Shown here: positions 9,728 through 21,533 of the stretch, one piece after another
How positions within the stretch are numbered: the first letter of the stretch is position 1
Layout of the letters: every line of letters starts with the position of its first letter
NCBI GenBank assembly: GCA_963785725.1
Contig: CAWAWS010000005.1
Location: forward strand, 192,001-256,000
Length of the DNA stretch: 64,000 nt
Direction of reading: 5' to 3'
From: an uncultured delta proteobacterium
GTDB lineage: Bacteria > Myxococcota_A > Polyangia > Palsa-1104
Program-made: the position numbers and the translations under genes
Notes under the pieces: generated by a model
Database searches by the model: none
What the model was told of the DNA's origin: nothing
The model's input: only the letters and a program-made list of their open reading frames with translations

Positions 9728-11290
9728 ATGAAGATGCGTGACCGCGTAAAAGACCTCGAAGAGCGCCGTGCCCAGATCAAGCAGATGGGCGGCGAAGACA
9801 AAGTCCGTAAGCAGCACGAGCGCGGCAAGTGGACGGCGCGCGAGCGGATGGACCGCCTGTTCGACGACGGCAAATGGTTCGAGGTCGGCATTCACGGCAC
9901 GCAGATGGCTTATTACGGCGACGACAAGCCGCCGGCCGACGCCGTCGTCTGTGGTTATGGCCACGTCGACGGGCGCATGGTGTGCGCCGCCGCTTATGAC
10001 TTCACGGTCAAAGGCGGCAGCATCGGGCAGACCGGCGAAGTCAAGGTGTCGCGCTTACGCGAGATCGCGCTGCGCAGCCGCATTCCGATGATCTGGTTCA
10101 TCGACTCCGCCGGCGCGCGCATCGATCCGCAAGCGGGACAAAATGGCGACTTATTGTCGCTCTTCGCCGGCGCGGGCGCGCTGTTTCGCGAAGAGGTCAT
10201 CATGTCGGGCGTCGTTCCGCTGGTCGCGGCCATGGTCGGTCCGGGCGCCGCCGGAACGGCTTACATTCCGGGATTGGCCGACTTCGTGCCGATGATGAAG
10301 GACGTCGGCTCGATGGCGCTTGGGTGGCCCGCCGCTCGTCAAAGCCGTCACCGGACAGGACATTGGCGAGCAGGAATTGGGCGGCAGTAAGGTTCATACC
10401 GAGAAGTCGGGCGTCGGCGACGTCGAAGTGGCCGACGACTCGGAGTGCTTCGGGGACGATCAAGGAATATCTGTCGTTCTTTCCGTCATCGTGTGAGATC
10501 GAAGCCGCCGATCATGGTCTGCAATGATCCGATCGACCGGCGCGAAGAGGCGCTGCTCGATCTGTTGCCGGAGTCGACGCGGCAGTCTTATGACATGTTG
10601 GAGATCATTCGCCACGTCGTCGACTATGGCCGACTGCTGGAATTGAAGCCCAAGTTCGCGCGCGCCATCATTACGGGGTTGGCGCGGATCGGCGGTCGTC
10701 CCTGCGGCATCGTCGCCAACAATCCGCGTCATATGGGCGGCATTCTCACCAATGACAGTGCCGACAAAGCGGCGCGGTTCATTCAGATTTGCGACGCGTT
10801 CAATGTTCCTTTGGTGTTCTTGATGGACGTGCCCGGCTTCATGGTCGGCAGCAAAGTCGAGCACGAAGGGATCATTCGCCACGGCGCCAAGATGCTGCAC
10901 GCGATGGCGTCGGCGACGGTGCCGAAGCTGACCTGCGTCGTGCGTAAAGGCTACGGCGCCGGCTATTTCGTCATGGCCGGACGGGCTTACGAGCCCGATC
11001 TGATCGTCGCTTGGCCGGGCGCCGAGATCAGCGTCATGGGCGCCGACGGCATGGTCGGCATCGCCGGTAAGAAGCTGTTTCCGGGCGGCGATCCGCCGCC
11101 GGAAGTGCGACAGCAGTTGGCGGCGGCCATTCAACAGCACATCGACGTCTATAAAGTCGCCGGCTGGGGATTGGTCGACGACGTCATCGATCCGCGCGAT
11201 ACGCGGCAGGTGTTGGCGCGCGGGCTCGAGCTGGCCTGGAACAAGAAGGTCGAGCGGCCGTGGCGCAAGCACGGGATCATGCCGGTTTAA
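9728..11290 (+). CDS. Acyl-CoA carboxylase carboxyltransferase (PccB/MccB-like), interrupted by frameshifts at about 10324-10500
   Basis: [50 protein letters not shown] distributed over successive frames. Confidence 0.88.
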
Positions 11291-13376: not shown

Positions 13377-14210
13377 ATGGCAATCAAGCTCGATCTCGTG
13401 GGCCAGAAGTCGAAGCCCATCCCGTTTACGTACGGCTGGAAAGATACGGCGCTCTATGCGCTCGGCGTCGGCGTCAAAGCGAGCCAGCTCGATTACGTGT
13501 ACGAGGCGCGCGGGCCCAAGGTGCTGCCGACGTTCGCGGTGGTGCCCTCGTTCACGTCGATGATCGCCGTCGCCGGTGACCTCGGCGCCAACCCGATGAT
13601 GATCCTGCACGGCGAGCAGCAGATCATCCTGCACCGGCCGATTCCGCCGGGCGGCACGCTCGCCACCGTCTCCGAGGTCAAAGGCATCTACGACAAAGGC
13701 AAGGGCGCGCTCGTCGTCGTCGAGGCGCGCACCAGCGACGAGAGCGGCGCGCCGGTCTTCGACAACGTGTTCTCGATCTTCGTGCGCGGCGAAGGCGGCT
13801 TCGGCGGCGAGCGCGGTCCCGAAGCCGTCAAAGCCGACCCGCCGGCGACGGCGCCCGACTTCGAGGTCGTCGAGACGACGACGGCCGAGCAGGCGCTGCT
13901 CTATCGACTGTCGGGCGACTACAACCCGCTGCACGTCGATCCCAACATGGCCAAGTTCGGCGGCTTCGATCGGCCGATCCTGCACGGCCTGTGCACGTAC
14001 GGCTTCGCCGGCCGCGCCATCCTCGCCGGCGCCTGCGGCGACGACCCGGCGCGCCTGCGCTCGTTCGGCGCGCGCTTCAGCGGCGTCGTCTTCCCCGGCG
14101 ACACGCTGACGACGCGCGGCTGGCGCGTGGCCGACGGCCGCTACGTCATCACCGTCGCGACGCAAGACGGCAAGCTCGTCCTGTCGAACGCCGTCGCCGA
14201 AGTCGCCTGA
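13377..14210 (+). CDS. MaoC-type (R)-specific enoyl-CoA hydratase, double hot-dog fold
   Basis: LYALGVG, ILHGEQ, YRLSGDYNPLHVDP, PILHGLCT. Confidence 0.93.
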   Translation: MAIKLDLVGQKSKPIPFTYGWKDTALYALGVGVKASQLDYVYEARGPKVLPTFAVVPSFTSMIAVAGDLGANPMMILHGEQQIILHRPIPPGGTLATVSEVKGIYDKGKGALVVVEARTSDESGAPVFDNVFSIFVRGEGGFGGERGPEAVKADPPATAPDFEVVETTTAEQALLYRLSGDYNPLHVDPNMAKFGGFDRPILHGLCTYGFAGRAILAGACGDDPARLRSFGARFSGVVFPGDTLTTRGWRVADGRYVITVATQDGKLVLSNAVAEVA

Positions 14211-14419
14211 CGCGCCGCGCGGCGCCGCGGCGTGTGCCGGCGCGCCTGCGCGAGCCATTGCGATGCAAGCGATCATGGCCATCGTCTTGGGGGCGCTCAG
14301 CACGTTCGACAGCCTGCTCGTCTACTTCGTGTGAGTCTCGGCATTCCCGTCTACCGCCTCATCGCGCGCAAGCAAACGGCCGATCGGTAGCCATCGCCGC
14401 GTTCGGGTATAATCGGGGG

Positions 14420-14716
14420 ATGGGCGATCCCTACGCCTCGAGCCGTCTTCAGCTGGAGCAGGTGGTCACCCGTGGCGCCGGGCACACCGAGCCGTCGCTC
14501 AGAGAGGCCATCGCGCGCGGCCAAGCGCCGCCCGAATTGGCCGCGCTCGTCGACAAGGTGCGGCGCCACGCCTACAAAGTGACCGACGAAGACCTCGCCG
14601 CGCTCAAGGCGACGTGGTCGGACGACCAGATCTTCGAGATCGTGGTCGCCGCGGCCTTGGGCGCTGCGGGCGATCGGCTGCGCGCAGGCCTGGCCGCGCT
14701 GGACGGAGTGGACTGA
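14420..14716 (+). CDS. Small AhpD-like helical protein lacking cysteines
   Basis: DKVRRHAYKVTDEDLAALKATWSDDQIFEIVVAAA resembles the C-terminal half of AhpD/CMD proteins; TATAAT at 14408-14413; TGATG coupling to the next gene. Confidence 0.75.
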   Translation: MGDPYASSRLQLEQVVTRGAGHTEPSLREAIARGQAPPELAALVDKVRRHAYKVTDEDLAALKATWSDDQIFEIVVAAALGAAGDRLRAGLAALDGVD

Positions 14717-15297
14717 TGCGACTCGCCAAGCTCGACCACGGGCACAGCTTCAAGCACAAGCTGCTGCTGCGGGCCATCAAGCTCTTCTCGGGATATCGCG
14801 CGCCCGACGTGGTCAAGACGCTCATCTATCGTGCGGCGTTCTTCGGCGACGCGCAGTCGCAGCTGACGCAGGAAGTGATGCGCGGCCCGTCGGAGTGGAC
14901 GGTCGGCGAGCGCGAGATCTTCGCCGCGTTCGTCTCGCGCTTGAACCAGTGTCTGTTTTGAACGAACGCTCATGCCGCGGTCGCGGCAATGTGCGTGGGT
15001 GACGAGCTGACCCAGCAGATCCTGGCGGACTACGAGACGGCGCCGATCGACGACAAGCTGCGCGCGATGCTCGGCGTCTTGAAGAAGCTGACGCTCGAAC
15101 CGGAGCAGGTTGGACCCGCGGACATGAAGCCGCTGCGCGCGCTCGGCCTCTCGAAGCAGAAGATCGCGGACGCGATGTACGTCATGTTCCTCTTCAACAT
15201 CTACGATCGGCTCGCCGACACGTTCGGGTGGGAAGTGCCGGTCCGCGCCGCGTTCGACGTCGGCGCAAAGCGGCTCCTTACGCGCGGCTATCGGTGA
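14716..15297 (+). CDS. AhpD/CMD-like peroxidase-related protein, probable selenoprotein (CxxU, TGA at 14959-14961)
   Basis: The two track ORFs are in the same frame, separated by a single TGA: EREIFAAFVSRLNQCLF-U-TNAH matches the AhpD NxCxxC..H motif; 193 aa with readthrough. Confidence 0.85.
14971..14991 (+). promoter_or_regulatory. Candidate bacterial SECIS hairpin
   Basis: CATGCCGC-GGTC-GCGGCAATG; the stem starts at the tenth base after the TGA; apical loop contains GU. Confidence 0.7.
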
Positions 15298-15482
15298 CGC
15301 GGATCGGGTTGCCGCAGCCGGCTGAGTCGCCGGACTTGTGGGCCGCGTCGTCGCGGAAGTCCGCTGCTTCCGCGCCCGCCACGCCAACGTCACCGCTGCC
15401 CCGCCCTTCACGCCCGCTCCGCTCTGCCTCGCCGCGCAACAAAAACTGTCGCGCCCGCCGATCGTCGACTACCCTTGCCTCG

Positions 15483-16313
15483 ATGGACCTGCGACGTGAG
15501 CTCGACCTCGCCATCGAGCTGGCACGGCGCGCCGGCGAGCGCATCCGCGTCCTGCGCAACGCCGGCCTCGCCGTCGAACAAAAAGCCGACGACTCGCCGG
15601 TCACGCAAGCCGATCGCGAAGCCAACGCCCTCATCGTCGACGGCCTGCGCGCCCACTTCCCCGCCGACGGCCTGCTCTCCGAAGAGCTGCCCGACGACGG
15701 CTCGCGCCTGACCGCGCCGCGCGTGTGGATGGTCGACCCGCTCGACGGCACCAAAGACTTCATCCGCGGCCGCGACGGCTTCAGCGTCATGATCGGCCTG
15801 CTCGTCGACGATCGCCCGGCGCTCGGCGTCGTCTACCAGCCGGTCGGCGACAAGCTCTATTTCGCGACGCTCGGCCACGGCGCCTTCGTCCGGCGCGCCG
15901 GCGCCACGCCCACGCCCATCCACGTCTCGCCCGTCGCCGAGATGGCGCAGCTGCGCATGGTGGCGTCGGCGTCGCATCGCACCGAGACGATTGACCGCGT
16001 CCGCGAGGCGCTCGGCGTCTCCGACGAGCTCAACATCGGCTCCGTCGGCTTGAAGCTCGGGCTCATCGCCGAGGGCGTGCGCGACCTCTACGTCAACCCG
16101 AGCGGCCACTCGAAGCTGTGGGACACGCTCGGCCCCGAGGCGATCCTCGTCGAGGCCGGCGGCCGCTTGAGCGACGCGCACGGCCAGCCGCTCGATTGGC
16201 GCGGCCCCGAGCTCGGCAACGTGCGCGGCCTCATCGCCTCCAACGGCGTCTTGCACGACCAAGTCGTCGCGCGATTGGCGGCGCTGTTCCCGAGCGGCCG
16301 CGCGCGCGAATAG
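15483..16313 (+). CDS. cysQ: 3'(2'),5'-bisphosphate nucleotidase CysQ / inositol monophosphatase family
   Basis: SPVTQAD, LSEE, WMVDPLDGTKDF, GSVGLKL, KLWD. Confidence 0.85.
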   Translation: MDLRRELDLAIELARRAGERIRVLRNAGLAVEQKADDSPVTQADREANALIVDGLRAHFPADGLLSEELPDDGSRLTAPRVWMVDPLDGTKDFIRGRDGFSVMIGLLVDDRPALGVVYQPVGDKLYFATLGHGAFVRRAGATPTPIHVSPVAEMAQLRMVASASHRTETIDRVREALGVSDELNIGSVGLKLGLIAEGVRDLYVNPSGHSKLWDTLGPEAILVEAGGRLSDAHGQPLDWRGPELGNVRGLIASNGVLHDQVVARLAALFPSGRARE

Positions 16314-17944: not shown

Positions 17945-17952
17945 ACGCGCGT

Positions 17953-19328
17953 TTACTTGCCGGCGAGCATCATCTTGGCGACGCGGAAGGTCGGGCACGC
18001 CGTCGAGCTGCGCAGGTCGAGGTCGTCACCGACGGCGTCGACGTCGTGCCACAGGTCGTTGAAGTTGGCGCTGACCGTGACTTCGCTGACCGGCTGGCCG
18101 AGCTTGCCGTTCTCGATAAGGAAGCCGCCGGCGCCGCGTGAGAAGTCGCCGGTGACGGCGTTGAAGCCGAAGCCCATCATCTCCGTCACGTACAAGCCGC
18201 GCGACACGCCGGCGATAATGTCGGCGGCCTTGCTCGTTCCCGCCTGCATGACGAAGTTGGACGTCGTCACGTGCGGCGAGCCGCCGACGCCGCGGCCGGC
18301 GCAGCCGTTCGACTGGCGGCCCAGTTTGCGCGCCGAGTAGACGTCGGTCAGATAGGTCTGCAGGACGCCGCCGTCGACGACGACGTTCTTGCGCGACGCC
18401 AAGCCGTCGCCGTCGTACGGCCGCGAGCCGGGACCGCGCACGATGAGCGGATCGTCGACGATGGTGCACAACTTCGACGCGATCGAGCTGCCCTCGCGAT
18501 CGAGCAAGTAGCTCGACTTGCGGTAGATGGCGCCGCCGGAAACGACGCCGAAGATGAGGCGCAGAAGCGCGCGGCCGGCCTCGGGATCGAACACGATCGG
18601 CATCTCGCCGGTGGCGATCTTCTCCGAGCCCAGCTTGGCGACGGTGCGGCGCGCGGCCTCTTGGCCGACCTCCTCGGGCGACTTCGAGCTTGGCGAGGAA
18701 GCGATCGGCCGTCCACCAGTGGCCGTTGCGCTTCTTGCCGTCGGCGTCGTCGCAAATCGGCTCGACGACGAGCGACTGATAGGTGCCGCGAAAGCTGCCG
18801 GCGAAGCCGTCGGAGCTGGCCAGCGCGCTGGCGCCGACGACGCGGCCGTAGGTCGCGCCTTCGGAGTTCGTGACCTTGGGCGAGAACCCGCGCGCCGCCG
18901 CTTCGCCGCGCTTGCACCACTCGATCGCGTCCTTGGCCGTCGACGCCGAGCGCCGCTTCATCCCACAATTCGAGCTCGGGGAAGGTCGTCGCCAGCTGAT
19001 CGCGCGGCGGCAGCTCGTTGAGCAGGTCGGGCTCGGCCAGCTTGGCCAGCTCCACCGAGTCGGCGACGAAGCGCTCGAGCGCCGCGTCCGACAAATCCGA
19101 CGTGTACGTCAAGGCGACGCGCTGATCGCGGAACACGCCGAGGCCGAGCGCGCGCGACGACGCCTCCTGCACCAGCTCGGGCTCGCCCATGCGCACCTTG
19201 ACGGACAGCTCGGCGCCGCCCTGCACCAGCGCCTCGGCCGCGTCGGCGCCGTGCTTGCGCGCCAGCTCGACAGGCCTGCTCGCGAGTCGCGATGCGCTCG
19301 CGAGCTCTTCGGTAGCGTGGCTCGCCAT
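17953..19328 (-). CDS. pmbA: PmbA/TldE family protein, frameshifted at about 18680 and 18955
   Basis: DGDG, LTDVYSARKLG, GFNAVTGDFSRGAGGFLIENG; N-terminal part lies in other frames. Confidence 0.88.
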
Positions 19329-19331
19329 GCA

Positions 19332-20777
<1,446 letters not shown>

Positions 20778-20915: not shown

Positions 20916-21533
20916 TTAGGCGTTGACCCGTCCGTCGACGGCGGCCAGCGTCTCGCCGATGGCGCGCGCCGCCTCGGCGATCTCGGCCTCGTCGCCGCCG
21001 AGCCACAGCCGGCCGACGGCGCCGAACGTGATGACCTCGAGCAGGTGGATGTTGGCCGCCTTCTCCGCCTCGTTCGCCGCCAGCGCCGCATACGCCGCCG
21101 GGTGCACCTCGAGCGTGTACAGCGTCTGCCCTTCGTTGATCATGTCGCCGTGCCGCATGCGATCGATGAGCGCCGCATGATGCCCGTCGATGCCGGTGAT
21201 CGTCTGCTCCGACAAGATGCGCGGCTTCAGCCGATCCTGCATCGAGACGCCCAGCTTCTCCAGCATCGCGTCGCCCGCATGCCGCACTTCGCCCTGGTCG
21301 AAGCTGTGGACCTCGAGCATGCCGTACGCGCGCTCGACGATCTGCATGCCCGGGATGACGCGCGTCTGCTTGAGCGCCACGTCGGTGATGGTGTTGATGG
21401 CGATGCCGGGCGCGATCTCGATCAACAGCGCCGCCTGATTGGCCAGCGGCAAGAAACCCGACGCGACCGTCTGAAAGAACGAGGCCAGCTGCGGCTGCAG
21501 CACGTCGAGATAGGTGAAGGTTCGCAGCTCCAT
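20916..21533 (-). CDS. Bacterial microcompartment shell protein, tandem-domain BMC-T (CcmP/CsoS1D-like)
   Basis: LDVLQPQLASF, IEIAPGIAIN, VERAYGMLEVH, LEVHPAAYAALAANEAEKAA, FGAVGRLWL; resembles Haliangium ochraceum BMC-T proteins as I recall them. Confidence 0.9.
   Translation of the reverse strand: MELRTFTYLDVLQPQLASFFQTVASGFLPLANQAALLIEIAPGIAINTITDVALKQTRVIPGMQIVERAYGMLEVHSFDQGEVRHAGDAMLEKLGVSMQDRLKPRILSEQTITGIDGHHAALIDRMRHGDMINEGQTLYTLEVHPAAYAALAANEAEKAANIHLLEVITFGAVGRLWLGGDEAEIAEAARAIGETLAAVDGRVNA

Follow-up and report, generated by a model that had tools for sequence, protein, structure and literature searches.

According to the available text of the published accounts, AhpD-like selenoproteins (COG2128) were reported in 2005 with 27 sequences from the Sargasso Sea (PMC1088965), were listed in genomes in 2006 (PMC1794560) and were represented by 299 sequences in the GOS data of 2008 (PMC2398784). 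In Table 1 of a 2026 catalogue the 'AhpD-like protein, TIGR01926, CxxU' is given as predicted with high confidence, not experimentally verified (PMC13188914), and the family is included in BSepDB (PMC13326102). The family is abundant in metagenomes and is still listed as predicted only; a literature search for a biochemical study of a recombinant AhpD-like selenoprotein (peroxidase activity) found none, and TIGR01926 is named in three papers of the literature searched. The relay of M. tuberculosis AhpD is described as Glu118, Cys130, Cys133, His137 and His132 (PMC3141380). For Deinococcus radiodurans DR1765 the mutant is described as H2O2-sensitive and the CxxC motif as needed for complementation (PMC8945050). 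For bacterial SECIS elements the legend to Fig. 2 of PMC13188914 gives a loop of 3-9 nt, an upper stem of 4-16 bp, a spacing of 16-37 nt, a G in the first two loop positions and an MFE of -7.5 or lower.

The locus described here lies in a window of 64,000 nucleotides (the whole stretch of DNA that was analysed) from a source genome of 8.9 Mb that is 88% complete. It shares with the catalogued family a TIGR01926 score over the cut-off, the CxxU motif, the in-frame TGA, a SECIS in the coding region and the existence of Cys homologues. The catalogue representative is MCB9421940.1, and membership of the present protein in the family was assigned by TIGR01926 score and CxxU. The preliminary description of this DNA had named AhpD-like selenoproteins as known, which the catalogue entries since 2005 bear out, and the gene is therefore a missed annotation. 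The selenoprotein itself belongs to a known family; new here is its linkage to a likely partner subunit. The available text of the published family accounts (PMC1088965, PMC2398784, PMC13188914) does not mention a partner gene, and BSepDB or the paper supplements may already list the subfamily or the partner.

Reading frame, protein family and fold

The ORF list shows the gene as two ORFs, one ending at 14961 and one starting at 14989. In the translation, codon 82 is the sole internal stop of a 193-codon frame, in the context RLNQCLF*TNAH; ORF ends and translation thus agree with the preliminary description, which had taken both ORFs as one frame broken by a single TGA. The GC3 values on the two sides of the TGA are 0.90 and 0.89. 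Verification of the TGA at 14959 had also been proposed there, and for this purpose independent soil-metagenome contigs of related strains were used in place of raw reads from the source: the TGA is kept and spanned in three of four runs, and at 14959-61 no other letter occurs among the differences listed. A search of 14150-15520 revealed neither a sigma-70-type promoter nor a terminator on the + strand. The features of the locus are collected in Table 1.

Table 1. Positions of the features of the AhpD-like locus in the window.
Feature	Position	Strand	Description or basis
98-aa Cys-free paralogue lacking the catalytic segment, predicted partner subunit	14420..14716	+	hhalign, linkage, fusions, model
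AhpD-like (TIGR01926) gene	14716..15297	+	193 aa, read through one internal TGA
Glu67, predicted proton-relay residue (Glu118 equivalent)	14914..14916	+	invariant, 51/51
Cys79, first position of CxxU (M. tuberculosis AhpD Cys130 equivalent)	14950..14952	+	at least 90% conserved, 51 sequences
Predicted Sec codon 82 (TGA), second position of CxxU	14959..14961	+	TGA or Cys only at the column in 30 + 80 + 29 loci
His86, predicted proton-relay residue (His137 equivalent)	14971..14973	+	invariant, 51/51
SECIS core: 6-bp stem, GGUC loop at 14979-14982	14973..14988	+	lower stem reaches about 14966-14996; pairing and covariation
Window neighbours of the gene pair			MaoC-like dehydratase and inositol-monophosphatase-family gene

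With U read as C, the protein scored 88.8 bits against TIGR01926 (cut-off 81.8) and just reached the cut-off of Pfam CMD, in line with the AhpD/CMD-like family that had been guessed from the letters; several close relatives fall under the TIGR01926 cut-off. The scores against TIGR00778 (AhpD proper; 23.6 vs 27.8), NF041238 AhpD_rel_CFYUT (34.2/175), TIGR04030 (47.1/233), NF053654 (17.5/310) and TIGR04029 (19 vs 101) stayed below the respective cut-offs. TIGR04030/TIGR04029 (Avi_7169/Avi_7170) and NF041238 belong to the same superfamily as the AhpD-like protein and match it weakly. In the Avi families a protein bearing CxxC is paired with a CMD protein that lacks Cys.

E67, C/U82 and H86 are the only columns that are invariant in the 51 aligned relatives. 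The spacing of E67, C79, U82 and H86 is that of Glu118, Cys130, Cys133 and His137 in M. tuberculosis AhpD, and the TGA falls at the second Cys of the AhpD motif (C79-x-x-U82), where the preliminary description had placed it. If Cys133 is the attacking residue (nucleophile), as we take it to be, Sec82 stands at the nucleophile position. The M. tuberculosis protein differs in that His132 of the five-residue relay corresponds to Phe81 here, its catalytic motif is C-terminal, the TM-score is only about 0.4 and a linked ahpC was not found at the present locus. The AlphaFold model of the joined 193-aa protein (pLDDT 93.5) has an all-helical AhpD/CMD fold, with 2pfx, 3c1l, 2oyo, 6k40 and 2prr as best matches (TM 0.74-0.77) and DR1765 (6k40) as the nearest solved relative (E 2e-17). 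These five proteins, of which 2oyo, 2pfx, 3c1l and 2prr come from structural genomics, have the E-x11-C-x2-C-x3-H motif and the fold in common with the protein described here, whereas they carry Cys and not Sec, are about 25% identical and were solved without a truncated partner.

Codon 82 among relatives and the predicted SECIS hairpin

Matches were found in 26 of 61 related genomes. After one of 31 loci had been dropped because it had no match at the column, column 82 was read in 30 genome loci including the window's own, with 25 TGA and 5 TGC, and in the metagenome all 80 loci (the best 80 of 333, forming one tight clade) had TGA. Of 301 genomes sampled evenly across the phylum, 32 matched, and the 29 loci read, one of which duplicates a member of the 30-locus set, comprised 19 with TGA and 10 with Cys. 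Codons other than TGA and TGC/TGT were found at this column in none of the three locus sets, which answers the comparison of homologues that had been suggested as a check. Searching genome contigs with P0001 gave one locus only (Gaiellaceae, TGA form).

A tree was calculated by quick search for 72 rows, a set that excludes one duplicate and 75 of the 80 metagenome loci. It contains 9 Sec/Cys label changes, compared with about 21 for shuffled labels, and suggests that the change from Sec to Cys took place repeatedly; since only 2 of the changes are forced by well-supported branches, the Sec-to-Cys direction is to be read as suggestive. Turnover between Sec and Cys is known, and a repeated Sec-to-Cys change fits it. 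A Cys-type paralogue in the source genome (L012, G000:C47:172915-173409 (+)) is 33% identical, carries CEFC and has neither the hairpin nor a partner gene.

The hairpin CATGCCGC-GGTC-GCGGCAATG lies at 14971-14991. The preliminary description had reported a loop 18 nt past the UGA and its likeness to the GGUC of E. coli fdhF; both were found, with the first base of the GGUC loop as the 18th after the UGA and the GGUC of fdhF at the 19th. Like the fdhF SECIS and the consensus bacterial SECIS, the element lies within the coding region directly after the UGA and has GGUC as its apical loop; different from fdhF, apart from the loop position, is the upper stem, which forms an unbroken, GC-rich helix of 6 bp. 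The 4-nt GGUC loop, the 6 bp, a spacer of 17 nt and an MFE of -10.8 kcal/mol for the core lie within all four published SECIS limits. Including the lower stem, the MFE is -18.6 kcal/mol; the z-score is about -2.6 (core -2.66), and only -1.54 for a longer stretch of 62 nt around the hairpin. Loose G-loop hairpins are common in this genome of 68% GC (7,318 of 185,324 TGA triplets, 4%), and the hairpin by itself is therefore weak evidence. The strict form with a GGTC loop, at least 6 pairs and exact position +18 follows three of the 185,324 TGA triplets.

In the genome set 19 of 25 TGA loci carry the GGTC loop at +18, as do 16 of 19 in the phylum sample, and a GGTC hairpin at this position was seen in none of the 15 Cys loci (0/5 and 0/10, respectively). 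The TGA loci without the GGTC form (6/25 and 3/19) belong to distant clades, most of which bear another stem-loop there. Distant AhpD-like clades with the TGA in the same column and a longer, different stem-loop at the same position are represented by L030, L032-L036 and L168. In 19 aligned TGA loci, 114 of 114 cells (100%) are paired, compared with 17-68% in slid controls, three of the six pairs vary on both sides and the covariation is 0.345 (0.131 when shuffled). The paired changes swap the encoded residues (H-G-A-V-A-S, H-T-A-V-A-V, H-D-A-V-A-S, H-A-A-V-A-A), and because these compensating changes alter amino acids, selection on the RNA is indicated. The three invariant pairs are uninformative on covariation and sit in Ala-Val-Ala codons, so that protein conservation adds to the pairing score.

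Selenocysteine machinery and the 98-aa gene of a probable partner

In the source genome selA (557 bits, C14), selB (303, C7) and selD (333, C19) were found, all above curated cut-offs, and contig C25 bears a tRNA-Sec gene (73.4 bits) whose anticodon is UCA; all four components for which a search had been proposed in the preliminary description are thus present. SelD is of the Cys type. A Sec formate dehydrogenase was not found in the genome, in which none of 6 Fdh-like matches was over the cut-off and none contained a stop. Of 44 related genomes tested, 43 have selA and 32 have tRNA-Sec. In the phylum sample, 190 of the 301 genomes have a selA match and 111 have none. Among the 32 matching genomes, two of which were classed as TGA or Cys from the stop count alone, 21 have a TGA form; selA was found in 20 of these, and selB and tRNA-Sec in the other one. 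Of the 11 Cys-only genomes, 7 lack selA; the genomes in this count are related and the Fisher p = 0.0007 is therefore overstated. In one genome without selA, selB or tRNA-Sec matches (G249, 98% complete) the gene exists in a closely related Cys form whose hairpin has decayed.

Judged from these sequence comparisons, 14716-15297 appears to be one gene whose codon-82 UGA is very likely read as Sec. Three findings had been named at the outset as speaking against this reading, namely another codon in reads at 14959, a genome without Sec machinery, and homologues with neither Cys nor TGA at this position; none of them was encountered.

The preliminary description missed a 98-aa gene, which is added here and whose stop overlaps the ATG of the AhpD-like gene (TGATG). 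By hhalign its product aligns with residues 48-169 of the selenoprotein at a probability of 91.9%, with a gap of 36 columns over the CxxU segment. Its model (pLDDT 95.4) matches the same PDB entries as the selenoprotein, weakly (E > 0.001); no family was matched at cut-off, and look-alikes in the Atlas are without names. The gene accompanies all 38 subfamily loci, upstream in 36 and fused in 2, including all 16 of the 16 that lie outside the training alignment of its profile. It is also present in 63 of 63 metagenome loci (among the best 80 of 333) whose upstream sequence is long enough to hold it; in distant AhpD-like loci the profile gave 2 matches in 20, both weak. The partner is fused C-terminally to the Sec form in L029 and L158, and N-terminally to a Cys form in P0020, one database protein known from its protein sequence alone. 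The constant linkage and the fusions in both orders make the 98-aa product likely a non-catalytic partner subunit. In L034 and L035 a weak second partner-like domain lies downstream in frame. Expression of the Sec chain will probably require co-expression of the 98-aa partner, and the natural Cys versions, such as the Cys pair of L024, and the fusions would be easier constructs.

Beside the gene pair, no peroxiredoxin, reductase or regulator gene recurs in 39 loci with flanks of about 1.5 kb, and other neighbours recur between close kin only. With no redox or regulator gene recurring, the surroundings give no indication of the substrate.

Rival readings, proposed mechanism and further loci

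A nonsense mutation or an assembly error that broke the gene would not be out of place in a window with other split genes, e.g. the carboxyltransferase at 9728-11290, but is refuted by conservation of the TGA across proteins 30-66% identical: it recurs in 24 of the 29 genome loci other than the window's own, in every one of the best 80 of 333 metagenome loci and in 19 of 29 phylum loci. Since the matches of the genome and metagenome sets contain no further stop, contigs from three runs span the TGA and the GC3 is even on both sides, the probability of a broken gene is negligible. It is also very improbable that the locus holds two genuine genes, the first for an N-terminal piece of 81 aa and the second for a piece of 102 aa with a new start at ATG 14989. 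The ATG is in frame and the corresponding half-proteins are found in databases (P0027, P0028, P0035-38), as had been anticipated for the output of standard pipelines; however, C79 would be parted from the invariant H86, which lies between the two pieces, relatives do not conserve the Met at 14989, each Cys homologue is one protein and the model of the joined chain has high confidence. A reading of UGA as Trp or Cys instead of Sec, through an alternative code or a recoding tRNA, would account for the W at the Sec position of three JGI proteins (P0002-4). However, all 80 metagenome loci fetched with P0003 (best 80 of 333) have TGA and none has TGG, so that the W in P0002-P0004 is likely a gene-caller reading. 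TGA moreover terminates both the AhpD-like gene and the partner, the sole UCA-anticodon tRNA found is tRNA-Sec and TGA forms track the sel genes, which leaves Trp or Cys decoding with hardly any probability. The reading as one Sec-containing chain thus corrects an annotation in which gene callers split the gene or place Trp at the Sec site.

With regard to function, the protein is likely a selenol/thiol oxidoreductase. Reductive dehalogenation or reduction of reactive chlorine, in place of peroxide or disulfide reduction, is suggested by the debrominase Bmp8 (6ohj/6ohi), which shares the fold (TM about 0.70), by the AhpD-family protein RclX, which protects against HOCl (PMC7950407), and by the lack of a linked AhpC together with a separate AhpC-TSA plus CMD gene pair on C24. 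This role is nevertheless unlikely, as Bmp8 is only remotely related (12% identity; profile E 0.01 vs 6e-28 for DR1765) and the surroundings of the gene in 39 loci show neither a recurring halogenase nor a recurring RclR-like regulator. A related proposal, in which the Sec chain and an obligatory paralogue would form a two-subunit selenoenzyme for Bmp8-/deiodinase-like dehalogenation or chloramine reduction in soil bacteria and not for peroxide removal, is considered slightly less probable still. The relay residues shared with M. tuberculosis AhpD and 22 AhpC-TSA matches in the genome would suit a dedicated AhpC reductase of that kind. This assignment has a small probability, since AhpC stands beside the gene in none of the loci compared and another CMD gene lies about 450 nt past the AhpC-TSA gene on C24; the structural likeness to M. 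tuberculosis AhpD is low as well (TM 0.4).

The best explanation of the whole, which we regard as quite probable on the basis of the sequences, would be Sec incorporation via SelA/SelB/SelD/tRNA-Sec and the hairpin into an AhpD-fold oxidoreductase that acts with the 98-aa partner. SelB would almost certainly bind the GGUC hairpin and insert Sec82. The E67-H86 relay would activate Sec82, which would reduce its substrate, either a hydroperoxide or a thiol protein in oxidised form, and C79 would resolve Sec82 to a selenenylsulfide, which a cellular dithiol, e.g. a lipoyl protein, would re-reduce; these steps are taken jointly as fairly probable. The small paralogue may well supply the helices contributed by the second identical subunit in homo-oligomeric relatives, giving a hetero-oligomer of catalytic and non-catalytic chains.

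Several further loci were noted. The third match to the strict SECIS form lies outside the window at G000:C7:817940-818281 (-), identical to L127:1938-2282 (-), in a candidate selenoprotein gene of about 115 aa with the motif QDEYTHD...(Y/F)DTT-TGA-LG or LDCT-TGA-LG and a GGTC hairpin at +18. This family has matches in 21 of 41 genomes, each with an in-frame TGA match, and the column is TGA in 15 of 15 loci read. Among 11 proteins of the family that were read, five have Cys (P0052-55, P0057), one R and one L, and four stop at the TGA, including Nannocystis proteins. No NCBIfam or Pfam match was obtained, the best Atlas score was 0.77 and the available part of the 2026 catalogue table has no obvious entry, and the candidate may represent an uncatalogued selenoprotein family. 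A looser genome scan for a hairpin plus Cys gave 315 matches, those listed being mostly off-frame, and was dropped as non-specific. A weak AhpC-TSA/thioredoxin-like match with one in-frame TGA at G000:C14:116416-116745 (-) is possibly another selenoprotein, and an AhpC-TSA gene followed by a CMD-family gene at G000:C24:20929-21980 (+) is likely an ordinary ahpC-ahpD pair. Arrays of tRNA genes were found at G000:C3:124966-129345 (20 genes within 4.4 kb) and at C39:626782-627456 (5 genes). Within the window, the carboxyltransferase mentioned above is in two frames, likely through an assembly indel, and a gene pair at about 17950-20570, presumably TldD/PmbA-like, is spread over several frames, likely also through assembly indels. 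At 20916-21533 (-), adjoining an RNA pseudouridine synthase gene, a BMC-domain (microcompartment shell-like) protein is encoded whose score is just under the cut-off.
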